Source: Planctomycetota bacterium
Lineage (GTDB): Bacteria; Planctomycetota; Planctomycetia; Pirellulales; UBA1268
DNA: 52,357 nucleotides
NCBI GenBank assembly: GCA_037129495.1
Contig: JBAXUW010000003.1
Coordinates: forward strand, 1-52,357
Direction: 5' to 3'
Each line of letters opens with the position of its first letter. Within the stretch, counting starts at the first letter, position 1. Below the pieces are notes generated by a model, which was not told the origin of the DNA, made no database searches, and saw only the letters and a program-made list of their open reading frames with translations. Shown here piece after piece: positions 4,841 through 47,819 of this stretch. The translations under genes and the position numbers were made by a program.

Positions 4841-4855
4841 GTGGGATAAGGGTTT
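4841..4855 (+). repeat. REP-like motif, truncated copy
   Basis: GTGGGATAAG(GGTTT), immediately left of the ISL3 left IR. Confidence 0.7.
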
Positions 4856-4856
4856 A

Positions 4857-5366
4857 GGGTCTTCAGCAGAATCTGTGGGTAAAAATCGCTGCTGAATGGG
4901 CGCTGGGCAACTCTTTCTCACGGGTGTGCATCTGCGATATGGGCATGGAGCCGGCCGCGGAGTCGCAGTCACCCGTCGGCGATCTGGGGCAAGGGATTAC
5001 CGCTTGGACAGCCCCTTCCTGGAGGTGCACGTCGAGCCCCGGGCCAATGGGCGGGCCATCTGCTCTGGCTGCGGCGAGAAGCGGCCCGGTCTTGAGTCGT
5101 GGTGCACCAAAGCCCTCCGCAGTCGGCTTGCGCCGATGAAGAAGGTCGCCAAAAGCCTGCGGCGTCATAAATCGCTGATCCTCAACTGGTTCCTCGCCCT
5201 GGGCGGCATCTCGGCAGGCGTCGTCGAGGGATTCAACGGCAAGGCGAAACTGACCACCAGAAAAGCCTACGGCTTCAGAACGCCGCAGGGCATCGAAATG
5301 GCTCTGTTTCACGTCCTCGGACGACGACCCGAGCCAGAATGTACCCACAGATTCTGCTGAGGAGGC
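4857..5366 (+). mobile_element. Internally deleted, non-autonomous ISL3-family element (510 bp)
   Basis: Terminal inverted repeats GGGTCTTCAGCAGAATCTGTGGGTA (4857-4881) and 5342-5366 match at 22/25, with the inner 19 bp perfect. The internal ORF carries ISL3 N-terminal and C-terminal motifs. No target-site duplication found. Confidence 0.85.
4896..5360 (+). pseudogene. ISL3 transposase remnant: N-terminal Zn-finger start fused in frame to the C-terminus, catalytic core missing
   Basis: LEVHVEPRANGRAICSGCGEKRPG is joined at about 5090/5091 to LESWC..ALRSRLAPMKKVAKSLRRH..LILNWF..SAGVVEGFNGKAKLTTRKAYGFRT..EPECTHRFC. The protein is 154 aa, versus roughly 400 aa for intact ISL3 transposases. Confidence 0.85.
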
Positions 5367-5381
5367 GAAAACTTATCCCAC
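5367..5381 (-). repeat. REP-like motif, truncated inverted copy
   Basis: GAAAACTTATCCCAC is the reverse complement of GTGGGATAAGTTTTC. It abuts the ISL3 right IR. Confidence 0.8.
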
Positions 5382-5422
5382 GGGGGCAGCAACTGCCGTG
5401 CCGAAAACTACTGCTATTCGGC

Positions 5423-6637
5423 CTATTGTTCCGCCGCTGTGACGAGCGCCGCGGCGGCGGCTTCCTGAAATGCGCGACGCACAATGCTACCGTCGCTGTT
5501 TGGGAAATTCGCTCGCTGCACCATCAGGATCGTGGCGGTGTGCTGTACGGGATCGATCCAGGCCTGTGTGCCCCAGGCGCCGCCGTGGCCGAAGGTGCCC
5601 GCTGAAAGACCGGCGGCGACGCCGTCGTGCGGCACCTTCACCACGCATGTGCCGACGCCCCAGCCATAGTTCTGGCCGTGGCTGCCATAGGCCTCGGCCT
5701 GCAAGAAGCCAGTTGGTAGGTCGCCCGTCTGCACGGCTGAGAGCGTGCCAACAGCCTCTTGGCTGAGGATTCGCTGGCCGTCGAACAGGCCGCGGTTGAG
5801 CAGCATCGTGCAGAAGCGGGCGTAGTCGAGCGGCGTCGAGTAGAGCCCACCGTTCCCCAGCGGCGGCCGCGACCGGTCGCCATATTCTCGCCGCGGAATG
5901 GCGACATCAAGCTGGCCTGTGTTTTTGTTGCGGAGATAGCCGGTTGCCAGCCGCCCGCGCTGGGTGTCGGTGGGATAGAAGGTCGTGTCGACCATCCCCA
6001 GCGGATCGAAGAGCCGCTTCTGGAGAAAGGTGTCAAACGGCTGCCCGCTGATCACCTCGACGATCCGGCCTGCAAGATTGAGGCCCGACTGTGTATAGAC
6101 CCACTTCTCGCCGGGCTCATACTGCATCGGCGCCGTAAGCCATGCCGGCACGAGCTCGGCGAGCGTCTTCGCGTCGTGGGCTGCTTGCCAGGCCGCCTCG
6201 CCGACGCCCGAGGTGTGCGTGAGTATCTGCCGGATCGTGAGCCGCGCAGGCTTGCCGGAGGGAGTCCTCAATTCGGCGAACTCTGGGATGTGACGTTCCA
6301 CAAGATCGTCGAGCGAGAGCCGGCCTTCGTCGGCGAGGATCATAATCGCCACACCGGTGACCGGCTTGGTCATCGAGGCGATCCAGAAGAACGTGTCGGG
6401 CGTCATCGGCCGGCCCGCCGCGACATCGGCCAAGCCGGTGCACTCAAGGTGACGGAAGTGCTCCCGATCGACGACCACGGTCACGGCCCCAACGATTTCA
6501 TGGGCGTCGATCATTGCCTGCATGGCCGCGCCGATGCCGGGGAGCCGGGGCTCGTCCGCGGTTGCGTCAGGAATTGGGAGCTGAGACACGAAGAGGGTGA
6601 TCGGAAGCACGAGCATAACCGCGGTGAGGAGTCGCAT
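5423..6637 (-). CDS. Secreted serine hydrolase, beta-lactamase family (class C-like)
   Basis: SxxK motif (ASMTKP), LLTHTSG-like ILTHTSG, WVYTQ, FGHGGAWGT. Signal peptide MRLLTAVMLVLP; start set at ATG 6637. Confidence 0.88.
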   Translation of the reverse strand: MRLLTAVMLVLPITLFVSQLPIPDATADEPRLPGIGAAMQAMIDAHEIVGAVTVVVDREHFRHLECTGLADVAAGRPMTPDTFFWIASMTKPVTGVAIMILADEGRLSLDDLVERHIPEFAELRTPSGKPARLTIRQILTHTSGVGEAAWQAAHDAKTLAELVPAWLTAPMQYEPGEKWVYTQSGLNLAGRIVEVISGQPFDTFLQKRLFDPLGMVDTTFYPTDTQRGRLATGYLRNKNTGQLDVAIPRREYGDRSRPPLGNGGLYSTPLDYARFCTMLLNRGLFDGQRILSQEAVGTLSAVQTGDLPTGFLQAEAYGSHGQNYGWGVGTCVVKVPHDGVAAGLSAGTFGHGGAWGTQAWIDPVQHTATILMVQRANFPNSDGSIVRRAFQEAAAAALVTAAEQ

Positions 6638-6867
6638 GGACGGGGTAGATTTCGGCTGGATTGCCACAAGCACGGACCACGACAGAATATACGCGGCTCC
6701 GGCGGCACTGAGGAGCCCGGGGCTACCTGGGCATGTTCTCAGCAGTGCCGCCGCACCGCCGGCCCGGTAGCCGCCATGCAAGCTTCCAACTCGCAGCGTC
6801 GAACGCTGAGGTGGACCCCATTCTTCCGAATACAACTCTTGACAATAGCCTACAGGCGACCACCAAC

Positions 6868-8499
6868 TCAGCGCGATTGGCGGCGTTCGTAGGTGAATGT
6901 GAGCGTGCCCTCGGCCAGTGCGATCTTCTTCATGGCCGCTAGCAATTGGTCACGCGTCGAACCGTCCGCGGGTAGCTGCGGTGACTCTGAGAGGGCATAG
7001 ATTGTAATGTGATAGGCCTTGAGCCCCGGGCCCTTGGAGCACATTGGATCGTAGTCCCGGCGCCGCTTGTCGTTCAGACCGGTCGTGCCGACCCCGCGAG
7101 AGTTTTTTTCCAGCCGCGTCACTGTCGCCGGAATCTCGTGAACGACCCAGTATGACTTGAGCATGTCCGGTGCCTCGTGCCAGAGCACCAGGGCATAAGA
7201 CTTCGTGCCGGCCGGACCAACCTGCCATTCGATCGGCGGCGACACCCCTGCGCCGTCACACGTGAACTCCTTCGGTAGACTTTCATGCGGGCCAAACGCG
7301 GGGCTCGTGACAACGAGATCAGCGGCACCGAGCCGCTGCGGTCGCGATGAATTCTCGGATTGGCGGGCATCCTCACGCGGTGGGCGTCTTTCGCCGGGTC
7401 GGGGCGGTGGTGGTGGCCGATCGTTGGGCGGTCCACCGCGGCGTGGCGGTCCGCCGGGTCGCCGGTCGCCAGGCGAGTAGGTCTCTTCGGTCTTACGGCC
7501 TGACGGGTCGGTCGATGTCAATTTCACGGAGCCGTCGGCCTCGATCTCGTAGACCATGACGCCCTTCCGACCGCCCACCTCGTACGTGAGCTGGTGGCTC
7601 GTGGGCGTGGGCGACTCAAAGCCTGTGATCGTTGCGCCACGCAGCGGCGGGAGTGCCGGCCGCACCGGCTCCGCCCGGGGCTGCGGATCGACCTGTCCAT
7701 CTCGCTCGATCACTTCGCCGCGAAAGCCGCCATTTAAATACGGATAGTGCTTTGTGGCATGGTAGTGGTAGTTGCCGTTGGCGTCCTCGTGGCCGCCGAG
7801 CTTGTCGAGCCCCTGCACTGCCGAGCCATCAGGCTCGGTGTAGCCATAGATCGGATAGCCGTCGAGTGCGTAGGCGATCGGCATCCCCTTGCCGACCTGC
7901 TTCTCCAGGTGCACCGGGGCGATGTGGTAGTGGTAGTCGTCGGCCCGACCGCAGTGGCCGCCGTAGGCGTCGAGCTCACCGATCAAGAATGCGTCTTCGC
8001 CACGATTATTGAGCGGATTGAAGATCGGCACGCCGTTGACGGCTAACGCGATTGCGCCCCGCAGAAAACGGTTCTTCGTGGTGGCCGGATGCTGTGCCGG
8101 CACCGGCTCCAACGGGATCTGCCAGGCGTTGTCACCGACATACTTCTGCGGCAGTGGCACCTGCTGCTGCCAGTTGCGGATACCAACCATCAGCTGGTGG
8201 TCCGGCATACCAGTTGATTCAACGTAGAAAAACCGGTCATCGCTGCGACAGGAAATCGCCTGAAGATCACTAAACGGCTCAAAGGCCTTGGTGATAGTGA
8301 TGGCCGGCTCTCGTGGCGGTTTACGCTCTGAGGTGAAGATAAACCGTCCGCCGAGAGTGGAATCGTGAGCGGGCTCGTGGCTTGCCCGGTCGCCCTCCTG
8401 AATTCGGTGCCAAGGATGGGCGATGGCCTTGGGGGCGGTTCCTGCTAAGACCGACACAACGATGATCGCCGAGACGTGGACGCTGGTTGGAAAGGTCAT
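6868..8499 (-). CDS. YHYH-domain protein fused to a C-terminal YbhB/YbcL (PEBP-like) domain
   Basis: GAIALAVNGVPIFNP, DDYHYH, ALDGYPIYG, NYHYH, then a Pro/Arg linker, then SPAF..LPKEFTCDGAGVSPPIEW..TKSYALV..YWVV..YDPMC..YHITIYAL. N-terminal signal-like segment. Confidence 0.82.
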   Translation of the reverse strand: MTFPTSVHVSAIIVVSVLAGTAPKAIAHPWHRIQEGDRASHEPAHDSTLGGRFIFTSERKPPREPAITITKAFEPFSDLQAISCRSDDRFFYVESTGMPDHQLMVGIRNWQQQVPLPQKYVGDNAWQIPLEPVPAQHPATTKNRFLRGAIALAVNGVPIFNPLNNRGEDAFLIGELDAYGGHCGRADDYHYHIAPVHLEKQVGKGMPIAYALDGYPIYGYTEPDGSAVQGLDKLGGHEDANGNYHYHATKHYPYLNGGFRGEVIERDGQVDPQPRAEPVRPALPPLRGATITGFESPTPTSHQLTYEVGGRKGVMVYEIEADGSVKLTSTDPSGRKTEETYSPGDRRPGGPPRRGGPPNDRPPPPPRPGERRPPREDARQSENSSRPQRLGAADLVVTSPAFGPHESLPKEFTCDGAGVSPPIEWQVGPAGTKSYALVLWHEAPDMLKSYWVVHEIPATVTRLEKNSRGVGTTGLNDKRRRDYDPMCSKGPGLKAYHITIYALSESPQLPADGSTRDQLLAAMKKIALAEGTLTFTYERRQSR

Positions 8500-8535
8500 A
8501 GATGAGCCTGTTGTGGACCTCGCGACGCAGCAAAA

Positions 8536-10029
8536 CTACTTTCTGGCCAGGCGGTTGAGCGTATACCAGCCGGTGTCGTGGAGCAGCGGCAGACCGGAGG
8601 CATTGCGGATACCCGCCGCCTTGATCTCGTGGATCACGCCCTCGCGGAGATTGCCCAGCGTCAGCCGCACCCGCTTCCCGTCCGCGGTCGGCTCAGCCTT
8701 TTCAACCGTGCAGGCCTCCTCATCGACGACGGGACTGCCGTAGCTTGACTGATAAATGTATGTAAACCCCTTCGCGGCATAACTCTTCACGTCGGCGGCT
8801 GTAGCCGGATCGACCGGCTCCGTAAACTCGAGTTCAAAGCCACCCGGCACCGCCCGCATGGCCAGAATCTCCAGTGGCGTCTTACCTGTCCATGTCACCC
8901 GCTCCAGCGCATAGTCGCCGCCACCGCGTGAGCCCCAGCCGCGGTTGGTACCACCGACGTAGAGCGAACCATCGGGGGCAAACTGCAGAGCCAGCGAGCC
9001 GCTGTTAAACCCTTCGCGAACCTTAAAGCAGGCTCCCTGCATGACGCCGTCGATTGTCTCGAGGCTGCATCGCATCAGCATCGAGTGCGACTGGTCGCAG
9101 ACGAATACCTGACCCGCAAACGGACCAAACTTTCCGGCCGTCGTATCGCAGGCCACCCCCGCGGCGCTGTTTCCCATGATGCCGTGCGGAAACATTACCA
9201 CCGGTGGCCGCAGCCTGGGAATCTTTTTGACCTCGATGGCCCAGCGGCTACCGCTCTGCGGCTCCTGCGGCTTCTCTCCCATCTCGGGCGCGAGGTCATA
9301 CCACTTCAATCCACCCGGGTGCCCCACGAAGTCGCCGGGCACGAGGTGCTTGAGCGAACAGCAGCCGTTCCACGGCCCCTGGTTATCGGTGTAGAGCACG
9401 TTGCCAGCGGAGTCGAAGCCGATGCCGCCCGGCGAGCGGATCCCGGAGGTGGTTGGCACCAGTCTGCCATCGGGCGTTATGCGAACCGCCCAGCCCCGAA
9501 AGGGCACATCACTGTTAAAACTACCAGTCAGGCAGAGCACTACCCAGAGATTGCCGTCGCGGTCAAACTTCGAGCCGAATGCATATTCGTGGTAGTCGCC
9601 CGACACGCCCCAGCCATCGGCGACGGTCTCGAATTGGTCGGCCTCACCATCGCTATTGGTGTCACGGAGCCGGCTCACTTCCGGCCGCTGGGTCGTGTAA
9701 AGCCAGCCGTCCTTCCAGGCGAGGCCGAGCACCTCATGCAGCCCGTGCGCAAACCGTTTCCAGATAGGTTTATTGAAAGTGGGTGTGCCGCCCGTCGGTG
9801 CGGTCATTATCCAGATCTCGCCGCGGCGGGTAGCGACCGCCAGCCTGCCATCGGGTATCCATTCAAGGGCTCCCACTTCGAGAAACGCCTCGGCGGGAAT
9901 ATCGATCGCTTGGATGGCAAAGAAATCGGCCTCCTTGGGAAGCGAGACCGGCTCCGCGGCGGGACCCGAAAGGGCCGCCATGAGAGCCGCCGCCAGCGCG
10001 ACAAAGAGTGTAGATACCGCTCTTACCAT
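8536..10029 (-). CDS. Secreted PVC-type beta-propeller protein (glucose/sorbosone dehydrogenase-like fold)
   Basis: Signal peptide; propeller-like repeats (FAHGLHEVLGL, GDYHEYAFG, GIRSPGGIG, YTDNQGPW, FAPDGSLYVGGTNRGWGS); C-terminal Ig-like segment. Confidence 0.7.
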   Translation of the reverse strand: MVRAVSTLFVALAAALMAALSGPAAEPVSLPKEADFFAIQAIDIPAEAFLEVGALEWIPDGRLAVATRRGEIWIMTAPTGGTPTFNKPIWKRFAHGLHEVLGLAWKDGWLYTTQRPEVSRLRDTNSDGEADQFETVADGWGVSGDYHEYAFGSKFDRDGNLWVVLCLTGSFNSDVPFRGWAVRITPDGRLVPTTSGIRSPGGIGFDSAGNVLYTDNQGPWNGCCSLKHLVPGDFVGHPGGLKWYDLAPEMGEKPQEPQSGSRWAIEVKKIPRLRPPVVMFPHGIMGNSAAGVACDTTAGKFGPFAGQVFVCDQSHSMLMRCSLETIDGVMQGACFKVREGFNSGSLALQFAPDGSLYVGGTNRGWGSRGGGDYALERVTWTGKTPLEILAMRAVPGGFELEFTEPVDPATAADVKSYAAKGFTYIYQSSYGSPVVDEEACTVEKAEPTADGKRVRLTLGNLREGVIHEIKAAGIRNASGLPLLHDTGWYTLNRLARK

Positions 10030-12929
10030 GACAGCTCCTCGATTATTTCAGCGATTTCAGCAGTGGCCCTTTCACGGGGTTGGGCAGCGGTCCAGACGAT
10101 CGGATGTCTGAGTTGGATCTTGCCGTCGGCTGTGCGGGTCGCCTCGGCCGGCCCGGTCGATGAGCCGCTGACACGAACCCGCCATCGGCCATCGACCCGC
10201 TGCCAGCCGTCACCGGTAGCCTCAAGATTTGCGGCGACTGCGGCCCGGAAAAACACCTCTCCACGTTGCGGCCGGCCTTCCAATCGGATCGTACGGCGGA
10301 GGATCGGCCGATCACCACCCGTCGCCGGTTGAATTGTCTCGCGGATCCGCATTCCATCGAGTGACCAGGTGAACGTGGGCCGACCAGTCGCATCGAGGGC
10401 ATAGCCGCCAAACCGTGCACCGCGTTTTCTGGGATCGCTTGGCCAGGGGGACACTGAGCTTTCAAGCACCGCGATCGCTGCGGCAGCATCGGGCGTAAAG
10501 ACCGCATCGCCGAGCGGCGGCTGCCAGCCCTCTCCACGGCCCGTCCAATGCCTACCGGCATCGATGAAGGCTCCGCGCCACACAAGAGCGAGCCGCAGCT
10601 GCTCGGCATCCCAGGCCAGGTTCACTTTTTCGGGATAGCCCACGCCGATGGCCCGCGGCCCGGCCCCGGCGATAAAGTTGCGGTAAATGATCGGCCGGTC
10701 GATAGGCACGAGTTCGATTGGATTGCTGCCGACCCCAATTGGCGGCCGCGGCTTTGCACCGGCGAGATAACGCCAGACACCCTCGATCTGTCCCGCCGCC
10801 GTGCCGTCGAGAGTGTCTGGGTAAAACGTTTTGCCCTCGGGCCAACCTGCCGGCATCCGCGTGCCCGGTCGAAACTGCTGTGGATTGGCGACGTAGGCGA
10901 GGAACCACTCGTGCCGCAGCCGCTGCGGCGTCCGCGCCAGGTCGACGACGCCAGTGCTCTGTCCCTTCTCACCACCAAACGAGTGACACTTGATACAGCC
11001 CAGGGCCTTTGAGCCGACAAGGTGCCGACCCGCGTCGTCAATTTCGGCCTCGTTGTGGCCGGTGAGTGTAGGCACGGGCTGCTGCGTCTTGGGGTCATCC
11101 GCGAGGAGCCTGGCAAGTGGTTCGGCGACGGAGGCGTGCCACTTTGGCATGAGTGTGTGCATGTAAAGGCCGCGGTCTTTGCCCCCTTGCAGGAGAACCT
11201 CACGCAGAAACTCCGGCCGCAGCTTGTCGCCCGTACCTGTCAGTGTTGGCGGGAGGCGGCCCTCGTCGCCAAGTTCCTGCACCGCAGACGTAAAAAGCGC
11301 GTCGCGGGCGGCCTCCCTGAGGATAGGTTCGCCGTCGTCATCAACCGCGGCCAGCGCTGGTAATACGCCCCCTTTGCCGTCGCGGCCCGGAGTCAGACGG
11401 CTGTGACAGGCGTAGCAGTTGAGGGCTGTGAGCGTGCGGTCGATCGCCCGGTCGTGGTCCGGCGGAGCGATTGCCTCAGGCGACTGAAGCCAGGCGATCG
11501 CGGTCGCAACCGCCGTCCGCTGGGCATCATCGAGGCCATACCGCGGCCCGCGACCGCCGCCGCCCGCAGCCAGGCAGCCGGTATCGAGGGCATCGAGATC
11601 GGTGAGGGATTTTCCGCCCTCCTGCGGCGCGACAGGCTTGCCGTCGCCGGCGGCCAGCTGATGGCAGTGTGCACAGCCCACAGTGGCAAACGCCGCCCGA
11701 CCTGCTTCCACGAGCGTCGAATCGAGCGTGAAGCTTTCGGCTTCGTCGCCGGCATCCTCGGGCCGAAATGCAGGCGTGCCGTCCGCAGTTGGCGTCACAA
11801 AGGCGAGCGCCGACACCCGCGGCCCCCGCGGCGGCTTGATGTCGAGGGCTAACACTTCGCGGCCGCTGGCCTCGAAGTAGTCGATCCGGATCGGATGGAT
11901 GCCGGCCGTGAGCTGGATAGATCCGTACCGCTCGGAATCGGAATGGATGCCGTCATGATCGACGACGAGCGTGTTGTCGATAAAAAGTCGACTGCCGTCG
12001 TCGCTGAGCAGATAAAACTGATAGACGCCCGCCCGCGTCGCATGCAAAAACCCCTGTAATTGCACGACAAATCCATCCTGTGATCCCGCCAGCGCCACGA
12101 TATCGAAACCCTTGACTGCGGCCGCCTTTGTCGCAGCGCCGAGCGACTCGATGGCGGGTAGTTTGTCGACTTCCCGGAGCCAGGCCCGTCCGGAAAAAGC
12201 GACGGTATCACGGTAGCTGTGCTGGGGCGTTTGCGGCTTGCCAAGCAGGCTCGCCGTGAGCTGCCGCCGCTCATCATCCTTCAGCGGCAGCGCCGGCATC
12301 CGGCTCGACGGACGCACTGCCAGCGGGTCTTTGAGAAAATCATCGAGGGCCTGCGGCGACCATTTCGTGTCGATATCGATGAGTTGAGCCTGATCCGGCA
12401 GGAGCAGTGCGGAGTTCACGCGGGAGCCGTGGCAGACAGCGCAGCCGGCCCGCTCATAGACCCGCTGCCCCTCACCGGCATTTGCCTTTTCGGATCCTTG
12501 AAATAGACCGTTGTCGAAGCTGCCTGTCGAGGCGAGATAGTGGGCGAGCGCCGTCGCCGTGCGGCCGCGGTCGGCTTCGGGCAGGCTGGCAAGCAGATGC
12601 GGCATTGTTGTGCCGGGCTTCACCCCCTGCGGATCCTTGAGATAGCTCATCAGCCACTGGGGCGCAAGCCGCTGGCCAACTCTGTCGAGGATCGGCCCCC
12701 GCTTTGGCAGCAGGTGGGCAGCGGCAGTTGCGGTCGGAGCATGGCAGTTCACACAGCCGAGTTCGCCGATGAGCAGAAGCCCCGACTCGATCTGGGCCGC
12801 CGGATCAGTCGTCGGCCGACCAAACCGCTCAAAGCCCGCCACGATCGGGCCCGACGCCAGAGCCGCGGGCGAGATTGCCAGCACCACGAGTGCAGGGAAG
12901 AAAAGTTTGTTGAGACGAGAACATCTCAT
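10023..12929 (-). CDS. Multiheme c-type cytochrome with PA14 domain (5 CxxCH)
   Basis: CVNCH, CAVCH, CAHCH, CYACH, CIKCH; PA14 signature FYLLSDDGSRLFIDNTLVVDHDGIHS; signal peptide. Overlaps the downstream gene by 7 bp. Confidence 0.85.
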   Translation of the reverse strand: MRCSRLNKLFFPALVVLAISPAALASGPIVAGFERFGRPTTDPAAQIESGLLLIGELGCVNCHAPTATAAAHLLPKRGPILDRVGQRLAPQWLMSYLKDPQGVKPGTTMPHLLASLPEADRGRTATALAHYLASTGSFDNGLFQGSEKANAGEGQRVYERAGCAVCHGSRVNSALLLPDQAQLIDIDTKWSPQALDDFLKDPLAVRPSSRMPALPLKDDERRQLTASLLGKPQTPQHSYRDTVAFSGRAWLREVDKLPAIESLGAATKAAAVKGFDIVALAGSQDGFVVQLQGFLHATRAGVYQFYLLSDDGSRLFIDNTLVVDHDGIHSDSERYGSIQLTAGIHPIRIDYFEASGREVLALDIKPPRGPRVSALAFVTPTADGTPAFRPEDAGDEAESFTLDSTLVEAGRAAFATVGCAHCHQLAAGDGKPVAPQEGGKSLTDLDALDTGCLAAGGGGRGPRYGLDDAQRTAVATAIAWLQSPEAIAPPDHDRAIDRTLTALNCYACHSRLTPGRDGKGGVLPALAAVDDDGEPILREAARDALFTSAVQELGDEGRLPPTLTGTGDKLRPEFLREVLLQGGKDRGLYMHTLMPKWHASVAEPLARLLADDPKTQQPVPTLTGHNEAEIDDAGRHLVGSKALGCIKCHSFGGEKGQSTGVVDLARTPQRLRHEWFLAYVANPQQFRPGTRMPAGWPEGKTFYPDTLDGTAAGQIEGVWRYLAGAKPRPPIGVGSNPIELVPIDRPIIYRNFIAGAGPRAIGVGYPEKVNLAWDAEQLRLALVWRGAFIDAGRHWTGRGEGWQPPLGDAVFTPDAAAAIAVLESSVSPWPSDPRKRGARFGGYALDATGRPTFTWSLDGMRIRETIQPATGGDRPILRRTIRLEGRPQRGEVFFRAAVAANLEATGDGWQRVDGRWRVRVSGSSTGPAEATRTADGKIQLRHPIVWTAAQPRERATAEIAEIIEELSW

Positions 12930-13042
12930 ACGTTATTCGATTCCTCTGAGCACGTCTCTTGGGAGAATGGCTAACGGAGTCATCCTCAGTCTAGTCGCTG
13001 AGAGTGTGCCTGGTGCCAACCAATGCCTCTTATTGTTTCCTT

Positions 13043-13067
13043 GTGGGATAAGTTTTCCAACTTGTCC
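13043..13067 (+). repeat. REP-like motif
   Basis: GTGGGATAAGTTTTCCAACTTGTCC, in the divergent cytochrome/valS intergenic region. Confidence 0.85.
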
Positions 13068-13197
13068 AATGCGTTTTGCTGTGCAGTTCTGGCACTGCAC
13101 CGCCGGATTCCTCCGTGTACAGCCTGCCAGACGTCTATCTCCCCATGGCGGGAAACCATGGCTCTCCGCTAAAGTTTGGCGTTTTCCAGGAGACGCC

Positions 13198-16272: not shown

Positions 16273-16381
16273 GGCCCCGGCGTGAAACAGGCTGCGATTT
16301 TAAGGTAGGATGTGGGTAGGCGGCAGCAAGTCGGGAGGACGCGTCGCAGGTGCCACGGTCGCATGTAACCGGAGACAAATC

Positions 16382-16783: not shown

Positions 16784-16804
16784 GCGTGCCTATTCCTCAC
16801 TGAA

Positions 16805-16824
16805 GGCGAGTTTTCCAACGTGCC
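16805..16824 (+). repeat. Degenerate REP-like motif
   Basis: GGCGAGTTTTCCAACGTGCC shares AGTTTTCCAACGTG with the 47751 copy. Lies in a convergent intergenic gap. Confidence 0.5.
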
Positions 16825-16832
16825 GGTCCTCC

Positions 16833-19876: not shown

Positions 19877-19885
19877 AAAGGTCCT

Positions 19886-21333: not shown

Positions 21334-21358
21334 GGGGGATCATTTTTTCCAACTTGCC
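21334..21358 (+). repeat. Degenerate REP-like motif
   Basis: GGGGGATCATTTTTTCCAACTTGCC aligns to GTGGGATAAGTTTTCCAACTTGTC with a few substitutions and one extra T. Divergent hom/M42 gap. Confidence 0.55.
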
Positions 21359-21399
21359 TTTTCGCCTTTCCGCCTGATCACATACAACTTCTCATCCAA

Positions 21400-30245: not shown

Positions 30246-30278
30246 ATCTCCCGCCTACTCGGGACCCTTCCCTCCCCT

Positions 30279-30304
30279 GTGGGATAAGTTTTTGGAGCTT
30301 GTCC
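30279..30304 (+). repeat. REP-like motif
   Basis: GTGGGATAAGTTTTTGGAGCTTGTCC, in a convergent gap. Confidence 0.8.
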
Positions 30305-33991: not shown

Positions 33992-34025
33992 GTGGGATAA
34001 GTTTTCTAACTTGTCCAATCCGTGC
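33992..34025 (+). repeat. REP-like motif, 34-bp direct repeat copy A
   Basis: GTGGGATAAGTTTTCTAACTTGTCCAATCCGTGC, identical to 34177-34210. Confidence 0.9.
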
Positions 34026-34050
34026 TGCTGCCCCCTTCCGGCACTGCGCC

Positions 34051-34164
34051 GCCGGGCCGGCAGAAGTCTCCTTCGCGGGGACTTTCGCCGTGGGTCTTGT
34101 TGGTTGTCCAGACCTTGGCAGGGCGAAATTCCTACGCTCGTCGAGCTTCAGCCGCTCCCGGCTC
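34051..34164 (+). repeat. 114-bp REP-associated module, copy 1
   Basis: Colinear and gap-free with 47846-47959; 100/114 identical by manual count. Confidence 0.9.
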
Positions 34165-34176
34165 CAGCTGTCTTTT

Positions 34177-34210
34177 GTGGGATAAGTTTTCTAACTTGTC
34201 CAATCCGTGC
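34177..34210 (+). repeat. REP-like motif, 34-bp direct repeat copy B
   Basis: Identical to 33992-34025. Confidence 0.9.
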
Positions 34211-35389: not shown

Positions 35390-35478
35390 AAGAGTCCGAC
35401 AGAGAGATTGCAGTTACGGTCGCCCCACGGTGGCTCAGGCAGCTGTGTTCCGGTAGAGCTTGGGTTTCATGACGTCGA

Positions 35479-37446: not shown

Positions 37447-37449
37447 GGC

Positions 37450-37466
37450 TCAGCCGCTCCCGGCTC
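37450..37466 (+). repeat. Fragment of the 114-bp module (3' end)
   Basis: TCAGCCGCTCCCGGCTC is identical to 34148-34164. Lies in the convergent dsbD/purM gap. Confidence 0.6.
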
Positions 37467-37497
37467 TTCCGTTGCGGCAAGTCGGCAAAACCACCAG

Positions 37498-38568
<1,071 letters not shown>

Positions 38569-38675
38569 GCCCGGTATCTTCGCCGCCACGCGCCAGCTCG
38601 CAAGCCCGCCCTGCCGTCCTGCGGCGATCGGGCAACAGGGCGGCCGCCGGCAGCGGGAATGGTATGCTAGGAGGC

Positions 38676-40928
<2,253 letters not shown>

Positions 40929-40984
40929 GCGGTATGCTGGGAGGCAGCGGCTTGAAACCACTCGTCCTGCATAGGAGATTTGTG

Positions 40985-41563: not shown

Positions 41564-41570
41564 CAGATGG

Positions 41571-41586
41571 TGGCACGCTGGTTGCA
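41571..41586 (+). promoter_or_regulatory. Sigma-54 (-24/-12) promoter
   Basis: TGGCACGCTGGTTGCA is an exact GG-N10-GC consensus, intergenic, 44 nt before ATG 41630. Confidence 0.8.
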
Positions 41587-41629
41587 GTGAGGCGAACGTA
41601 CTTCAAGGACTCAATCAACGAGGATATTC

Positions 41630-42184
41630 ATGCTGGCGATCGAGTGGTTGAAACGGGTGGCAGGTGGTCTCATCCTGGGTTTGATTGTGGTCCTGACATT
41701 CGTGCCGGCCACGCCCTGTCTGGGGCTCGAGATCGACCCGGCTGCAGCTCGGGGACAACTCATGCTGCAGGCCGAGCCTGAGGGGGCGATCACGCCTACA
41801 GCAGCCAAGGCAAAGCTCACCAAAGAGCCGCAGCTGGTGGTGATTGCGGGCCGCGTGGGCGCCCGGGGAATGGACCCGTTTCTGGAAGACAGGGCGTCAT
41901 TTGTACTCGTCGAGATCCCCCAAGACGACCATGCCAAGAAGCCAGGGCACGACAACGACAACTGCCCATTCTGTAAAAAGCGGCAGGCCAACGCGCCGAT
42001 GACGGCCGTGCAGTTTCTGGGGGCCGACGGCAAGGTGATCGGTGTCGACTCCCGCAAGCTCTTCAATCTGCAAAAGGGTGCGGATGTCGTGGTGAAGGGT
42101 CAGGGCGTCTTCGACCCGAAACTGGCGATCCCTGTGATCCAGCTCACCGCCGAGAGCATCTTCGTTCGCCCACCCGCCAAGTAG
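41630..42184 (+). CDS. Secreted hypothetical protein with His/CxxC loop (possibly OB-fold-like)
   Basis: Signal peptide; DDHAKKPGHDNDNCPFCKK; beta-rich pattern (VVIAGRVG, VVVKGQG). GAGGA RBS. Confidence 0.7.
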   Translation: MLAIEWLKRVAGGLILGLIVVLTFVPATPCLGLEIDPAAARGQLMLQAEPEGAITPTAAKAKLTKEPQLVVIAGRVGARGMDPFLEDRASFVLVEIPQDDHAKKPGHDNDNCPFCKKRQANAPMTAVQFLGADGKVIGVDSRKLFNLQKGADVVVKGQGVFDPKLAIPVIQLTAESIFVRPPAK

Positions 42185-42199
42185 CCGGTGGCTTTTTGT

Positions 42200-42676
42200 A
42201 TGAACGCTGCCTTTAAGGAGTGGGCGGTAATCTGCCGGGCGCTGGCGCAGGGGCGGCAGCGGGTGATCCTGCGAAAGGGCGGCATTGTGGAGCCAGGCGG
42301 TGCATTCCGCGTCGAGCACCACGAGTTTTTTCTGCTGCCGACATTCCTGCACCAGTCGTCGGAGAGTCTCATCCCCGAGGCCCGCGACCTGCTGGTCGAT
42401 ATCGATGCCGACCGGCCACCGGAGGGCACGGTCGTGTTGCGGCATCGAGTCAGCGTGAGGAGCGCCGTGCGGATTCTCTCGCTCGTCGACCTGGCCCAGT
42501 TCCGGCCTGAGCATGTCTGGGCAGACGCCGTGGTGGCAGAACGCTTCCACCGCTGGCAGAACGAACTGTACGTGCTCTGGGTCGAGGTGGTAGCCCTGCC
42601 CGAACCCCTCAGCCTGCCGTGGCACGATTCTTATGGCGGCTGCAAGTCGTGGGTCGACCTCGTCCCATCAGTCTGA
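42200..42676 (+). CDS. DUF1802 family protein
   Basis: AFKEWAVICRALAQGRQRVILRKGGI, FFLLPTFLHQ, YGGCKSWVDL. Confidence 0.85.
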   Translation: MNAAFKEWAVICRALAQGRQRVILRKGGIVEPGGAFRVEHHEFFLLPTFLHQSSESLIPEARDLLVDIDADRPPEGTVVLRHRVSVRSAVRILSLVDLAQFRPEHVWADAVVAERFHRWQNELYVLWVEVVALPEPLSLPWHDSYGGCKSWVDLVPSV

Positions 42677-42704
42677 CCCGGTTTGAGAGCTCATCTTCTC
42701 CCCC

Positions 42705-42728
42705 GTGGGATAAGTTTTCCAACTTGTC
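42705..42728 (+). repeat. REP-like motif
   Basis: GTGGGATAAGTTTTCCAACTTGTC, in the convergent DUF1802/kdgK gap. Confidence 0.85.
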
Positions 42729-42740
42729 TCAGCCGGCTTG

Positions 42741-43838
42741 TTACCTCACCACCCGCGCGCCGCCACCCTGGATTTGCTTCTCGACCTCGGCCCGAGTCGC
42801 CATTGAGGTGTCACCGGGAGTCGTTGAGGCGAGCGCGCCGTGGGCGGCACCGTAGTCGACCGCCTTTTGTGGGCAGTTCAATTCCAGAAACCCAAAGACG
42901 AGGCCGCTGGCAAAGCTGTCGCCACCGCCCACGCGGTCGAGAATCTCAAGCTCGGGATATTTTCGGCTGTCGTAAAACTTGCCGTCGTGCCAGAGGATCG
43001 CGCTCCAGTCGTTCTTCGTGGCTGTGATCACGCGGCGAAGCGTGGTGGCCGCCACCTTGAAATTCGGAAACTCTTTCACGGCCGTCTCGATCATCTTCCG
43101 GAAGGCGTCGGTTTCAATGGCGCTGATGTTGTGGTCGACGCCCTTCACCTCAAAGCCCAGCGACGCCGTGAAATCTTCCTCGTTGCCGATCATGACATCG
43201 ACGTGCCGGGCGATCTCGCGGTTTACCTCGCGGGCCTTCGTCTGCCCACCGATACTCTTCCAGAGACTCGGCCGGTAGTTGAGATCGTAGGAGACGATTG
43301 TGCCATGCTTCTTGGCGGCCCTCACCGCCTCGACCGTCAGGGCGGCCGTCGTCTCTGACAGAGCGGCAAAGATCCCGCCGGTGTGAAACCATCGCACGCC
43401 GAGCGTGCCGAAGAGCCGGTCCCAGTCGATGTCGCCCGGCTTTAACTGGCTGGCGGCTGTGTTGCCCCGGTCGGGCACGCCCACCGCTCCGCGGATACCG
43501 AAGCCCCGCTCGGTGAAGTTAAGCCCGTTGCGAACACTCCGACCAATGCCGTCATCGGGCCGCCAGACGAGGAAGTCGGTGTTGACGCCCCCCTGCATGA
43601 TGAAGTCTTCGACGAGGTGGCCGACCTCGTTGTCCACAAAGGCCGACACCACCGCCGTCTTGAGTCCGAAGCACTTCCGCAGGCCGCGGGCTACGTTGTA
43701 CTCACCGCCCCCCTCCCAAACTTTAAAATCGCGGGCCGTGCGAATTCGACCCTCGCCTGGATCCAGTCGGAGCATGACTTCTCCAAGTGAGATCTGATCA
43801 AACGCACACAGATCCTTGGACTTCATCGGAAGAGACAT
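42741..43838 (-). CDS. kdgK: PfkB family sugar kinase, 2-dehydro-3-deoxygluconokinase-like
   Basis: SLGEVMLRLDP, GGGEYNVA, WFHTGGI, SYDLNYRPSLW, IGNEED, anion hole DRVGGGDSFASG. Confidence 0.88.
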   Translation of the reverse strand: MSLPMKSKDLCAFDQISLGEVMLRLDPGEGRIRTARDFKVWEGGGEYNVARGLRKCFGLKTAVVSAFVDNEVGHLVEDFIMQGGVNTDFLVWRPDDGIGRSVRNGLNFTERGFGIRGAVGVPDRGNTAASQLKPGDIDWDRLFGTLGVRWFHTGGIFAALSETTAALTVEAVRAAKKHGTIVSYDLNYRPSLWKSIGGQTKAREVNREIARHVDVMIGNEEDFTASLGFEVKGVDHNISAIETDAFRKMIETAVKEFPNFKVAATTLRRVITATKNDWSAILWHDGKFYDSRKYPELEILDRVGGGDSFASGLVFGFLELNCPQKAVDYGAAHGALASTTPGDTSMATRAEVEKQIQGGGARVVR

Positions 43839-43888
43839 AATGGCTCCGGGCGTTCGATGGCGTTCGAGAGATTTACTGAGGGGCAGGA

Positions 43889-44977
43889 TTAGACAGTTTT
43901 GAGCATCGCGATGTTGAGCTCTGGCGTTCCCGCTTCATGAGCGATTTCATTCAAGGCCTCGACTTCCGCCTGTGAGAAGAGCAGGCCGCCCGCCTGTTCG
44001 CTCCGCCTGGCAGACTCGGCCTCCAGTTGCCCGGGTAGCATGCAGAGGTCGTTCCCATGGCCGAGAATATCAGCCAGCACGGCCTTGACGTTGGCCGCCT
44101 GGTTGCGGCCCTGAGCGAAGACGCCACCTGAGATCGCGTCTGGATGGATGACCTGAAAGAAGAACGTGCACGACTGCTTCTCGCCCGCCACCAGGCTACG
44201 GCTGCGAAGTGTGGGGAGCGAACCACCGATATAGCCGGCGACGATCTCGTTGATCAACGACAGGCCGTAGCCCTTGTGGTCGCCGAATGGCAAGAGGTAT
44301 ACCGCCTGATCGGGATCGGTCGTTGGCTGGCCGTCCTTGTCGACCGCAGCATGTGGCGGGAGTGATTTCCCCTCGCGTTTGAGCTGCTGCACGCGGCCCA
44401 TCGCGATCACCGAGGTGGCCCAGTCGATCACGATTGGATACCCGATGGCATCCGTCGTCGGAAAGCCCCACGAATGCGGATTCGTGCCGAGCGTGGGAAA
44501 CTTCCCCTTAAACGGCACGACTTCCGCCAGCGACGCCGTACAGTTTGTGTAGGCAATGTAGCCCTTCTTTGCAGCCTCCATCACATACCCACCACCCCAC
44601 AGATAATGGAAGGCGTTGTCAATCGAGACGGTACCCGTGCCGTGCCTGTCGGCCAGTTTCATGCAGGTGTTGATTGCCTCCCAGGCCACTGCCTGCCCGA
44701 GCTTCTTTTGGGCGTCCCAGACCTCGGCTGCGTCAAACCGGCTGGGGAGCTTCTTGATCGTCGCCTTTGGCACGCAGCCTCCAGCCTTCGATCCAAAGAG
44801 GTCGTCGAGATGCATGGCCTTGATGGCGTTGTGTGTGCGGATGCCGTGCCGTGTGGCGGCCGTAGCCAGTTTCACTGCCTGCTCAGCCTCGGCCCCGTCG
44901 AAGCCACGATGCAGATAAGCCGACCGGACGATCGACTCGTGGGCGTCGACCGGCACAACAAAAAACGTTTCCGCCAT
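43889..44977 (-). CDS. Ldh_2 family oxidoreductase (malate/L-lactate dehydrogenase, YiaK/AllD-like)
   Basis: GIRTHN, LGTNPHSWGFP, IDWATSVIAMGRV, LPFGDHKGYGLSL, LPGQLE. Confidence 0.85.
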   Translation of the reverse strand: MAETFFVVPVDAHESIVRSAYLHRGFDGAEAEQAVKLATAATRHGIRTHNAIKAMHLDDLFGSKAGGCVPKATIKKLPSRFDAAEVWDAQKKLGQAVAWEAINTCMKLADRHGTGTVSIDNAFHYLWGGGYVMEAAKKGYIAYTNCTASLAEVVPFKGKFPTLGTNPHSWGFPTTDAIGYPIVIDWATSVIAMGRVQQLKREGKSLPPHAAVDKDGQPTTDPDQAVYLLPFGDHKGYGLSLINEIVAGYIGGSLPTLRSRSLVAGEKQSCTFFFQVIHPDAISGGVFAQGRNQAANVKAVLADILGHGNDLCMLPGQLEAESARRSEQAGGLLFSQAEVEALNEIAHEAGTPELNIAMLKTV

Positions 44978-45016
44978 GAGGATTCAAAACCTTTGAGAGG
45001 GGTCGGAAAGGTGGCC

Positions 45017-46000
45017 TCAGACACACCGCGTGACCGGCACCTCGGGATTCACTTGAGCCAGTGGCTTTTCGCCGTGCAGCGCCCGGATCAGGTTGGTGAC
45101 GGCCGCCAGCGCCTGCCGCTGCACGCTCTCGGCGGTCCGCGAGCCGATGTGCGGCGTGACGATGCAGTTGGAGAGTTTGGTCAGCGGATGGTCGGCCCGC
45201 GGCGGCTCCTCGTCGAGCACGTCGGTGCCGTACCCACGAACATGGCCCGACTCAAGCGCCGCAGCGATGTCGGCTGTGTTGACGATCTCACCGCGGGCAC
45301 AGTTTAAAATGAGAACCCCCGGCTTCATGCTCGCGATCGACTCAGCCCGGATCAGGTCGCGGGTCTCGGGCGTGAGGTTTGTATGAAGCGAGAGATAGTC
45401 GGCCACGGCGTAGATCTCGTCGATCGCTGCTGCCCGGATGATGCCGGCTTGAGTGGCAAACGTTTCGTCCCAATAGACGCCGTAGCCGATGACGTTCATG
45501 CCGAAGGCCCGCGCCCGGATCGCCACCTCCTTGCCAATCCGACCCATGCCAATGATGCCGATCGTCTTCCCAAGCAGTTCATGGCCGGTCTGCCGCTTCC
45601 AGCCGCCCGCCCGGGTGGAATCGACATGAAAGAGAAAATGTTTCTCAAGCGCCAGCAAAAGTAGAAACGTGTGCTCGGCGACAGTCGTGTGGTTGACACC
45701 AGGGGTAAAGAGCAGCGGGATGCCAAACTCTGTACAGCTCTTAACGTCGATCTTGTCGACGCCGATGCCGTATTTACTCAAGACCTTCAGTCGCGGTCGG
45801 GACTTTTCCAGGACGGCCCGGGTGATCCTGTCGTCGCCACAGATAAAGCCGTCAATGTCACCAACGAGGGTGAGTGTATCGGCCTCAGAGAGGGGGCCGC
45901 GGGCGGTGACGATCTCCCAGCCGGTGTCGGCGAGTGTCTTGTGATGGTCGCCGGGAGTTTCTTGAAAGGATGTGGTGGTAACCAGAATACGGGGCTGCAT
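45017..46000 (-). CDS. D-isomer-specific 2-hydroxyacid dehydrogenase (SerA catalytic-domain-like, no ACT)
   Basis: SKYGIGVDKID, NHTTVAEH, GIIGMGRIG, LNCARG, DVLDEEP, TPHIGSRT. Confidence 0.9.
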   Translation of the reverse strand: MQPRILVTTTSFQETPGDHHKTLADTGWEIVTARGPLSEADTLTLVGDIDGFICGDDRITRAVLEKSRPRLKVLSKYGIGVDKIDVKSCTEFGIPLLFTPGVNHTTVAEHTFLLLLALEKHFLFHVDSTRAGGWKRQTGHELLGKTIGIIGMGRIGKEVAIRARAFGMNVIGYGVYWDETFATQAGIIRAAAIDEIYAVADYLSLHTNLTPETRDLIRAESIASMKPGVLILNCARGEIVNTADIAAALESGHVRGYGTDVLDEEPPRADHPLTKLSNCIVTPHIGSRTAESVQRQALAAVTNLIRALHGEKPLAQVNPEVPVTRCV

Positions 46001-46077
46001 TGAGTTCTCCAGACAAGCTTGGGCCCTCACAAAATTATAGGAATTGCGGCGAAATCACAATTCGGTCGCTGCGGCCG

Positions 46078-46686
46078 CTATGAAGAACCCAGCCCGATCA
46101 CCCGCTCGTCGACAAACGGCTGCAATAGGCTCACGGTTGTGCCGGTCCATTTCCAGAGATGACAAAACCGACGGTCGGCGCCGGCACCGACCGTGCCGGT
46201 GCGGTGCAGCCAGTACGACTCGCCATCCCCTAGCGGCCATTGCTGAAATGCCGCCCACCGCTGCGGTGGCACGCGGGTCTTCAGCCAGTTCCAATGGTTG
46301 ATGTGGTGCCGATAGTCGGGATCAGGATGGCCGATGCACCAGAGCCTGTATTCACGCTCGGTAACGCAGGCGAATCGGTCGCGCCATGTGGCCATGAGGG
46401 GGGCGTCGCGGTCCAAAATATCGATGGCCGCGCCGATGCCGGCAGTGGTGGTGGTGAGCACGATCGCCGGCTCGGGATCGAGGCCTCGCTGCCTGACCGC
46501 GGTCCCACGCTCAACGAGCAGGCCGGTGAGGTCTGAGTCGACCCAGGTCACCAAATGGGCCGCGAGCACCGCCCGCTCTGCCGCCCGCTCCGCTGGGGTG
46601 CCGGCAACGGCAGCTGACTGAACGTGGCGGGCGGCCGCGGCCGACAACCGTAGCCCGTCGAGCCAGGCCTGGGTATCAGGGGTCAT
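46078..46686 (-). CDS. Hypothetical protein (Trp/His-rich C-terminal half)
   Basis: 202-aa ORF that fills the gap with plausible codon use. No family recognised. Confidence 0.6.
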   Translation of the reverse strand: MTPDTQAWLDGLRLSAAAARHVQSAAVAGTPAERAAERAVLAAHLVTWVDSDLTGLLVERGTAVRQRGLDPEPAIVLTTTTAGIGAAIDILDRDAPLMATWRDRFACVTEREYRLWCIGHPDPDYRHHINHWNWLKTRVPPQRWAAFQQWPLGDGESYWLHRTGTVGAGADRRFCHLWKWTGTTVSLLQPFVDERVIGLGSS

Positions 46687-46774
46687 GGCGTGGATTGCCC
46701 ATAAAAAACACCGGCCTCTGCGGACAAGGTATTATCAGCGAGTCATTCTCCGCCGCGGTCATACGGGTGCAACC

Positions 46775-47302
46775 ATGTCGAAACAATCGCCAGGCTCAGC
46801 CCCGCTCGTCTGCATCGTTATGGGAGTCTGTGGGAGCGGCAAAACAAAGGTGGGCCAACTCCTCGCGGCCAAACTGGGGTTTGTATTTCACGATGCCGAC
46901 GACTTCCATCCCCCGGAAAACGTTGCCCTCATGCGTCAGGGAATTCCGCTGGACGACGAGAAACGGCAGCCCTGGCTAGACCGCCTCCGGCGTCTGATCG
47001 ACGAGGCGGTGGTCTCTCGCCAAGGCATCGTGCTGGCGTGCTCGGCACTCAAACGCAGCTACCGCCTTCGCATGGGCGGTCGCGAGCCACAGGTGGTGCT
47101 GATCCACCTCGATGGATCGGAAGCCTTGATCCGCGAACGCCTCGAGCAGCGCACTGGGCATTTTATGCCCGCGTCGCTGCTCGCCAGTCAGTGTGCGCTG
47201 CTCGAGCGTCCAACGGTAGATGAGGCCGCGATCGTCGCCGATATCACCCCACCGCCCGCTGTGATTATAGAGACGATCTTGGCAGCCCTTGCCGCACGCT
47301 GA
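46775..47302 (+). CDS. gntK: Gluconokinase (GntK/IdnK)
   Basis: IVMGVCGSGKT, DADDFHPPEN, GIPLDDEKRQPWL, LACSALKRSYR, GHFMPASLLASQ. Confidence 0.92.
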   Translation: MSKQSPGSAPLVCIVMGVCGSGKTKVGQLLAAKLGFVFHDADDFHPPENVALMRQGIPLDDEKRQPWLDRLRRLIDEAVVSRQGIVLACSALKRSYRLRMGGREPQVVLIHLDGSEALIRERLEQRTGHFMPASLLASQCALLERPTVDEAAIVADITPPPAVIIETILAALAAR

Positions 47303-47341
47303 TGTCCGCAGGTTCGGGCCACCTGCTCCCCATGAGGTGAA

Positions 47342-47527
47342 CTACTTGTTGAGGAACTGCTGACGCAGCCACTCGTTCTTCCGCTTCTCAAGCTCGACAA
47401 GCTTTTTAACCGGACCCCGGCGGGTCGCGGTGCTCTCCGAGTTGTTCATACGCGACTGCGAGGCAGACGCGGTGCTGGCGATGACGAGGCTGGAAAGGAT
47501 AGCAAAGACGAAAACGATCCGACGCAT
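47342..47527 (-). CDS. Small secreted protein (61 aa)
   Basis: MRRIVFVFAILSSLVIASTASA signal peptide, then a basic amphipathic helix ..GPVKKLVELEKRKNEWLRQQFLNK. AGGAG upstream. Confidence 0.65.
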   Translation of the reverse strand: MRRIVFVFAILSSLVIASTASASQSRMNNSESTATRRGPVKKLVELEKRKNEWLRQQFLNK

Positions 47528-47750
47528 GAGGGGGGCTCCTGCAGGGGACTGGGATGAGGGCATCGCACGCCACGGGGCACGTCGCCGCGGGAACTGTGTG
47601 ACCTTGTCTGTCGTCGACACCGTGGGCTGTCTGAAATCAGCAGTCGTCAGCGCGGCTGCGCACGAGACATAAACCACACGTCCGGTGCGCACGGCATTCC
47701 GGGCAAGGCTCGTACAACCGGACGCGCGGATGTTGCCTCTTTCCCTCGCC

Positions 47751-47819
47751 GTGGGATAAGTTTTCCAACGTGTCGCTTTTGTCCCCCGTGGCATAAGTTT
47801 TTAGAGCTTTCCAATCCGT
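47751..47819 (+). repeat. Two tandem REP-like motifs
   Basis: GTGGGATAAGTTTTCCAACGTGTC (47751-47774) and GTGGCATAAGTTTTTAGAGCTTTCCAATCCGT (47788-47819). Confidence 0.82.

Follow-up and report, generated by a model that had tools for sequence, protein, structure and literature searches.

The window analysed here is a 52,357-nt stretch of planctomycete DNA (assembly GCA_037129495.1, contig JBAXUW010000003.1, positions 1 to 52,357), which is one contig (C223) of a 3.80-Mb, 496-contig, 92%-complete metagenome-assembled genome (MAG). The nearest named relatives of this source genome are "Planctomycetaceae" and "Pirellulales" MAGs, and all 20 public runs listed with it are DNA metagenomes, almost all from lakes or other fresh water. 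Intergenic regions of the window contain a short hairpin preceded by the tetranucleotide GTGG, which a preliminary description had treated as a strongly polarised repeat, resembling repetitive extragenic palindromic (REP) elements, that marks strand-switch junctions. Our results indicate that the motif is probably the main box, here called Y, of a family of intergenic hairpin repeats resembling REPs and bacterial interspersed mosaic elements (BIMEs), a member of the GTAG-tagged REP superfamily with GTGG as its tag.

Boxes in the window

We mapped the genes of the window by codon usage, with a Pfam check on 20 genes. The map contains six convergent and six divergent junctions, seven of which are occupied by a copy of the motif, and 10 of the 11 copies lie on the + strand; both counts reproduce those of the preliminary description, and the positions it listed do hold the motif. 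The hairpin core, GATAAGTT-N4-AACTTGTC, is exact (25 nt) at 13043, 33992, 34177 and 42705 and has one mismatch at 47751, giving 10 matches in the window (five sites, both strands counted) versus 0.07 expected from shuffled sequences. The copies at 30279 and 47788 are loop variants, that at 16805 is a box of the sister type Z, that at 21334 is degenerate, and those at 4841 and 5381 are heads only. An Rfam scan of the window returned no match.

The two head-only copies flank an insertion. At 4822..4850 (+), the end of an upstream module, GGCAGAAGTCTCCT, precedes half of a Y box, the head GTGGGATAAG (4841-4850), which the insertion has cut at the loop; its left flank is the common 'ggccggcagaagtctcctc GTGGGATAAG' junction, present on many contigs. 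The other half lies at 5367..5404 on the minus strand (20.5 bits), where the common upstream module TTCGGCACGGCAGTTGCTGCCCCC precedes the head half GTGGGATAAGTTTTC (5381 down to 5367), and the flank of this copy matches more than 25 other loci. Both copies consist of the head GTGGGATAAG only, with or without TTTT. Exactly between these inverted half boxes (GTGGGATAAG ... AAAACTTATCCCAC) sits an ISL3-family remnant, or mini-insertion sequence (4851..5366, +), which lies outside the repeat family. Its open reading frame (ORF; 5004-5360) aligns with no more than the final third of PF01610 DDE_Tnp_ISL3 (positions 170-234 of 240, E=8.5e-18), and partial copies of the element occur on contigs C58, C238 and C122. 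The sole minus-strand copy of the window is therefore explained as half of a site that an insertion sequence either split or brought along.

The remaining copies are all on the + strand. The feature at 13037..13113 (42 bits) comprises a pyrimidine tract, an exact Y box (13043-13067) and a partial downstream module, AATGCGT...GGCACTGCACCGCCGG, and lies in the divergent gap between a cytochrome/PA14 gene and valS. A Z-type box lacking the GTGG head, GAAGGCGAGTTTTCCAACGTGCCGG, is found at 16795..16828 (30.2 bits with the Z model) in a 49-nt convergent gap; the orthologous gap of a relative, G001, is 28 nt long and holds no box. At 21334..21362, in a divergent gap, a weak and degenerate box, GGGGGATCATTTTTTCCAACTTGCC, may be a decayed copy, and at the orthologous place two other relatives, G005 and G013, hold other modules, with G013 also holding GTGG boxes of its own. 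Single Y boxes occupy two convergent gaps, one a loop variant (GTGGGATAAGTTTTTGGAGCTTGTCC; 30273..30304) in a gap of 85 nt, the other with its pyrimidine tract (42700..42729, 37.8 bits) in the 64-nt gap between DUF1802 and PfkB genes. In the divergent gap at 33992..34201 a cassette comprises one Y box (33992-34016), a 160-nt hairpin module (34017-34176) and a second Y box in direct orientation (34177-34201). Similarly, at 47751..47990 a Y box with one mismatch (47751-47775) and a Y variant, GTGGCATAAGTTTTTAGAGCTTTCC (47788-47813), are followed by the modules found at 34017-34176; this repeat lies 3' of an hrpB-like helicase gene and is antisense to it. We also observed a 61-amino-acid small ORF at 47342-47527 (-) whose N-terminus resembles a signal peptide; should this ORF be genuine, the boxes at 47751 and 47788 lie in a co-directional gap, antisense, rather than in a convergent one.

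Because 33992 and 34177 flank one cassette, 47751 and 47788 are in tandem, and 4841 and 5381 are halves around one insertion, the 11 copies are not independent, and amount to about six loci with an orientation split of 5:1.

Structure, placement and orientation across the genome

Across the source genome, the 25-mer of the Y box, GTGGGATAAGTTTTCCAACTTGTCC, has 54 exact copies, 82 copies at one mismatch and 263 at up to five; at up to three mismatches there are 227 copies, compared with none for a reversed control. A profile search (at least 15 bits) returned 306 Y boxes and 129 Z boxes on several hundred contigs. A box lies no more than 150 nt from 105 of the 992 contig ends, so that the true number of boxes must be higher than that counted. 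Public lake metagenome contigs mapped to the window behave alike, with short contigs ending at boxes.

The Y-box unit is about 30 nt long and consists of a degenerate pyrimidine tract, the GTGG tag and a 9-bp stem, GGATAAGTT/AACTTGTCC, with one T.G wobble and a loop of TTCC or TTCT. The Z box (GTGGAGGCGAGTTTT..CTTGCC) is a sister built on the same plan. The tag is near-invariant (G in 254, T in 253, G in 259 and G in 258 of 263 copies), and positions -6 to -1 are 79-90% C or T genome-wide (214 copies) without a fixed sequence, which bears out the description's remark that a pyrimidine tract mostly precedes the motif. The stem shows covariation in an in-register count over copies: pairing-preserving double changes occur at two stem pairs, one changing from T-A to A-T (13 copies) and the other from A-T to C-G (14 copies). 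Among variant copies, G.T versus A.C mismatches number 32 versus 22, no clear strand asymmetry beyond the consensus wobble. On the 3' side, the box continues in one of two ways, either into AATSCGT, the start of a longer module, or into TCTTC and then an inverted Z box.

Folding of the GTGG strand of the Y hairpin yields -10.1 kcal/mol as RNA (z=-2.7) and -5.1 as DNA, with z about -2.3 to -2.7, and the complement strand as RNA yields -7.6 kcal/mol. A Y-Z pair folds at -34.8 kcal/mol (z=-6.2), about -35 on either strand. The 10-nt head, GTGGGATA[AC]G, also occurs 96 times genome-wide without the standard hairpin, in direct fusion with other modules or with variant hairpins (for example, TTTTTAGAGCTTTCC); the head acts as a separate module.

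Boxes occur in three arrangements: alone, as inverted Y-Z pairs folding into a long hairpin, and as joints between hairpin modules in direct or tandem arrays. Of 271 strong Y copies, 137 (51%) are single, in line with the earlier statement that many are, 78 (29%) have an inverted neighbour within 250 nt and 56 (21%) have direct neighbours only. We counted 51 tight Y-Z pairs with their GTGG tags outward and linkers of 0-19 nt. In direct arrangements, boxes flank other hairpin modules, as at 33992-34201, or form mosaics with them, and tandem arrays with periods of 74-184 nt are present on C98, C376 and C140. A CRISPR array was considered and rejected: the boxes of the arrays are separated by repeats of the same modules rather than by unique spacers, and most copies are dispersed.

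The boxes are almost exclusively intergenic, as described, with a single genic copy genome-wide, and their placement depends strongly on gap type. They occupy 86 of 360 convergent gaps (23.9%), 72 of 1628 co-directional gaps (4.4%) and 23 of 405 divergent gaps (5.7%). Convergent gaps are thus enriched about 5-fold over co-directional ones (odds ratio 6.8, p=2e-27), and the divergent versus co-directional difference is not significant genome-wide. Within co-directional gaps, the median distance of a box is 43 nt to the upstream stop and 151 nt to the following start, with the upstream stop being the nearer gene end in 78 of 104 cases. Because only convergent gaps are enriched, the association with strand switches is best understood as the REP preference for gene 3' ends: the claim that the motif marks strand-switch junctions holds for convergent gaps and fails for divergent ones. 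It is the 3' ends of genes that the boxes mark, rather than the strand switches themselves. REPs in many phyla likewise occupy convergent and unidirectional gaps downstream of ORFs (PMC3733652).

We found the orientation of the boxes to be random with respect to neighbouring copies, to replication-like GC skew and to transcription. Neighbouring copies separated by more than 400 nt on a contig have the same orientation in 50 cases and the opposite in 44 (53% same), which speaks against polarity, as an element polarised by replichore would nearly always agree with its neighbours. The skews of plus-strand and minus-strand genes, read on the contig + strand, are correlated (r=0.53, p=2e-9, 111 contigs), indicating a component independent of transcription and validating the skew as a replichore proxy. 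By this measure 73 Y loci agree with the sign of the skew and 62 disagree (54%, p=0.39); concordance is 41:29 on contigs with an absolute skew of at least 0.02 and 40:30 for single copies alone. Counts per contig are not overdispersed (chi-square 19.1, df 19, p=0.45), making the 5:1 split of the window unremarkable. In co-directional gaps 33 Y boxes are sense and 35 antisense, and among the copies listed in G013 a hand count gave about 16 same versus 19 opposite. The run of 10 in 11 is a sampling fluctuation inflated by linked copies. The strong polarity of the preliminary description, read there as replication-strand-biased insertion or a polar chromosomal site, is thus contradicted, and random orientation in a genome-wide scan against GC skew is the very outcome that the description had set against its own reading.

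Insertion and phylogenetic range

Comparison of empty and filled orthologous gaps, as had been suggested, indicates that the boxes are inserted DNA, because the gap of the 30279 copy, 85 nt here, is only 1-4 nt in three congeners (same-genus genomes G005, G013 and G015), in which the stop codons nearly abut. The flanks of the single copies at 30279 and 42705 are unique in the genome, and the recurrent unit is therefore the box with its pyrimidine tract only. Other orthologous gaps in relatives hold different repeats, which suggests that such gaps are colonised repeatedly. The sites at 42705 and 33992-34201 were discarded as clean empty sites, since synteny differs or relatives hold other repeats there.

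The exact box (up to three mismatches) was absent from the 40 relatives searched. This had suggested a species-specific family, a notion that we rejected when a degenerate pattern found related boxes in eight congeners: 221 copies in G010, 218 in G013, 187 in G000, 123 in G016, 116 in G008, 95 in G007, 60 in G015 and 24 in G006. The same pattern found no copies in five congeners (G001, G002, G011, G018 and G019) and none in any of 21 genomes of other genera. Among the genomes searched, the box superfamily is thus confined to one genus of lake Pirellulales and is patchy within it. A sister box in G013, GTGGCGGCAAGTTTTYAACTTGTC, is often in tandem with a period of 40-41 nt (for example, C7:27911-28015 and C10:37676-37779), much tighter than in the source genome.

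The core of the inner module, about 120 nt (34046-34165 and 47846-47959), was found in all six congeners searched, with 72-89% identity. It constitutes a separate repeat family, with dozens of copies in G001, and is present also in genomes without GTGG boxes.

Among the neighbouring genes, the PfkB-family kinase at 42741-43838 (-) has 80-87% protein identity to many Verrucomicrobiota MAGs (Opitutaceae, Akkermansiaceae) and 88-92% within its own genus, a pattern that suggests cross-phylum transfer or unusual conservation.

A probable REP-like family and rival explanations

The boxes are inserted, multicopy (hundreds), hairpin-forming and tolerated at gene 3' ends without a rule of orientation, and their architecture of a GTGG tag and an imperfect hairpin is REP-like, as had been proposed. 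GTAG-tagged REPs carry GTAG or GTGG tags and G.T stem pairs (Di Nocera, De Gregorio and Rocco 2013, PMC3733652), and GTGG-tagged GTAG-20 elements are known from Opitutus terrae (PMC3733652). With these the boxes share a 6-9 bp stem-loop, an unpaired 5' GT[AG]G tag, G.T stem pairs, hundreds of dispersed extragenic copies of species- or genus-specific sequence, a mixture of singles and head-head, tail-tail and head-tail dimers, and a location in convergent or unidirectional gaps 3' of ORFs. The features by which such REPs are recognised, a stem-loop unit of 20-40 nt, the tag, the extragenic copy number and the gap preference, are all present. The family differs from them in that half of its copies are single, a degenerate pyrimidine tract precedes the tag and no REP-associated tyrosine transposase (RAYT) was detected. 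The box sequence itself is new and, in the genomes compared, restricted to a single Pirellulales genus.

Other repeat systems offer partial parallels. E. coli BIMEs, which combine Y, Z1 and Z2 REPs with linkers, resemble this family in having box subtypes (two here) in inverted pairs, mosaics and tandem amplification, and the E. coli transposase TnpA-REP depends on the 5' tag and on a mismatch in the stem, cleaves at CT and is able to generate BIMEs in tandem (Ton-Hoang et al. 2012, PMC3333891); the stem here is imperfect as well, and the CT-rich flanks could serve as cleavage sites. In E. coli, however, singles account for only 84 of the 584 REPs, and the genome contains a REPtron with tnpA-REP (PMC3333891), whereas here 51% are single, no REPtron was found and the inner modules are longer (about 160 nt, with several hairpins). 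Like the REP doublets forming hairpins (REPINs) of Pseudomonas and their RAYTs, the family comprises a master sequence with a cloud of extragenic variants at one to three mismatches, inverted doublets folding into long hairpins, and tandem clusters. Pseudomonas REPINs, in turn, are 61% doublets, with decayed singlets (Bertels and Rainey 2011, PMC3116915), compared with 29% doublets here, singlets that are not more decayed and no cognate RAYT found. The subterminal hairpin with a short 5' guide-like tag, and the lack of an evident target duplication, recall the IS200/IS605 insertion sequences, from which the family departs in its random orientation and in that no TnpA was found. In IS200/IS605 elements such as IS608 and ISDra2, orientation is tied to the lagging-strand template.

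Several results weigh against membership in such a transposase-served family, chief among them the search for the enzyme. A PF01797 (Y1_Tnp) profile search of the source genome gave no match even though the controls responded, tblastn of 15 RAYT-like proteins of the genus against this genome gave a best E of 0.045, and 48 box-carrying contigs of the source metagenome (245 kb, about 99.9% identical) contain no Y1_Tnp gene; a Y1 HUH (RAYT) gene flanked by the motif, the search for which had been suggested, was thus not found in the assembly. Y1 matches exist in 13 of 19 congeners, with none in the box-rich G008 and G015 and only a truncated one in G010. The RAYT-like Y1 genes of the genus encode 220-260 amino acids (loci L007-L018 and L124-L131), and those examined carry the HxH (HUH-type) motif; nearly all of these are bracketed by hairpins of their own (AAAAGGGGACGCAGCTC, AAATGGGGACGGGAGCG, AAAGGTGCCAGCCACC, AAAAGCCCTGAGCGCAAGCGACGGGATC), and none is flanked by GTGG boxes. 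Single copies are, in addition, as well conserved as those with an inverted partner (mean 1.32 versus 1.58 mismatches, p=0.36), a departure from the REPIN model because REPIN singlets are decayed remnants. Separately, a weak replication bias (54-59% concordant, up to about 60%) may still exist, given the fragmented assembly.

The missing RAYT and the conserved singlets weaken membership in the REPIN-RAYT class and leave the resemblance to REPs and BIMEs standing. The absence of a Y1 gene is not proof, because a 92%-complete MAG breaks at boxes and a single-copy gene bracketed by repeats could be missed; the gene for the spreading enzyme may be unassembled, lost or of another kind. The source genome also has nine copies of the AAAAGGGGACGCAGCTC repeat, with no RAYT-like Y1 gene found. 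Candidates for a box-bracketed transposase were rejected, as they resemble MnmE, SecA, a glycosyltransferase and a Uma2-type nuclease (names from sequence, without a Pfam check) and none is a transposase.

For a REP-like family of this kind, the copies would spread by way of a single-stranded DNA intermediate, the hairpin of its GTGG strand, tag plus imperfect stem, being recognised. Nearby C/T sites in the CT-rich flanking sequence would be cut and rejoined, as E. coli TnpA-REP does in vitro, and purifying selection would remove insertions that damage promoters or operons. A putative secondary role of the boxes at RNA 3' ends is possible.

Other readings must be weighed against this one. Had the boxes inserted as single-stranded DNA preferentially into one replication strand, in the manner of IS200/IS605, their orientation would be polarised by replichore; the 10 of 11 window copies on the + strand of a contig with positive replication-like skew (+0.014), and the non-significant genome-wide lean towards concordance, are in keeping with this. 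The near-even agreement of neighbours where near-constancy is expected, the skew concordance, the lack of overdispersion, the G013 counts and the failure to find a Y1 transposase in the source genome bring it close to refuted, and we consider it very unlikely. Strong polarity, had it held, would have provided a handle on single-REP movement or chromosome organisation in Planctomycetota. Least credible of all is that the box is a polar chromosomal protein-binding site of the KOPS or Chi type, or a DnaA-box-like site, although the head GTGGGATAAG is its most conserved part, recurs 96 times without the full hairpin and, as its reverse complement TTATCCCAC, resembles TTATCCACA, one inserted base apart from the DnaA box. 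A KOPS/Chi-like motif was rejected because the strand skew that switches with replichore is absent in the neighbour, GC-skew and contig tests, and five congeners have no copies. The DnaA-box idea (a head resembling TGTGGATAA) was rejected because neither boxes nor heads occur in dnaN/dnaA-like intergenic regions; furthermore, the two proteins containing a DnaA C-terminal domain are DnaA-like proteins of the ordinary kind rather than fusions to a RAYT. The two DnaA-type genes (C379:8539-9339 and C491:8399-10036) comprise one full-length (545 amino acids) and one short (266 amino acids), the short one being separated from the neighbouring dnaN by 700 nt of AT-rich sequence in which canonical DnaA boxes are few.

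The boxes could instead be functional RNA or DNA elements at gene ends, such as 3' stabilisers, roadblocks or (bidirectional) terminators, kept by selection. The strong enrichment in convergent gaps and nearness to stop codons favour this reading, as do the G.T wobble, which favours folding of the GTGG strand, the stability of Y-Z pairs on both strands, a bias in convergent gaps towards boxes sense to the nearer gene (45:28), and the stabilisation of upstream mRNA by E. coli REPs (PMC3733652). Yet transcription has no bearing on orientation in co-directional gaps (33:35), a lone hairpin is weak, the boxes are dispensable to judge from the five same-genus genomes with none, and relatives have either nothing or other repeats in the orthologous gaps; overall, selection for such a function is an unlikely explanation. 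An intrinsic terminator in particular was rejected, as the stem is AT-rich, the 3' sequence is AATSCGT or TCTTC rather than a T-run, and sense and antisense copies are about equally frequent. It is also improbable that the boxes are joints of a RAYT-independent system, in which another recombinase or nuclease copies 30-nt boxes and exchanges hairpin modules at them. Consistent with such joints, no RAYT was found in three box-rich genomes, the RAYTs examined in the genus lack GTGG boxes, single boxes are conserved as well as paired ones, boxes form direct repeats around modules as well as tandem arrays (period 74-184 nt here, 40-41 nt in G013), and the inner 160-nt module, unlike the box, occurs throughout the genus. 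Conversely, all the genomes are fragmented MAGs breaking at repeats, in which an embedded single-copy gene could be missed, TnpA-REP also makes tandem arrays and mosaics in vitro (PMC3333891), and no candidate enzyme was found, the tightest bracketed genes being housekeeping genes or a Uma2-type nuclease.

The reading of the boxes as a REP/BIME-like family has consequences of its own. The boxes explain the poor assembly of these MAGs, about a tenth of contig ends lying at a box. The one point of interest of the family is its apparent lack of a RAYT: a family apparently without one, in a genus whose RAYTs serve other hairpins, bears on whether all REPs depend on RAYTs. It is conceivable, if doubtful, that the boxes spread without any RAYT, the 30-nt box being a replicating unit recognised by another enzyme and the joint at which older hairpin modules, present across the genus, are picked up, swapped and amplified in tandem. 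If true, this would constitute a second, RAYT-independent route to REP-type repeats, and the range of 0 to about 220 copies per genome within the genus provides a natural comparison set for finding the enzyme that spreads them.

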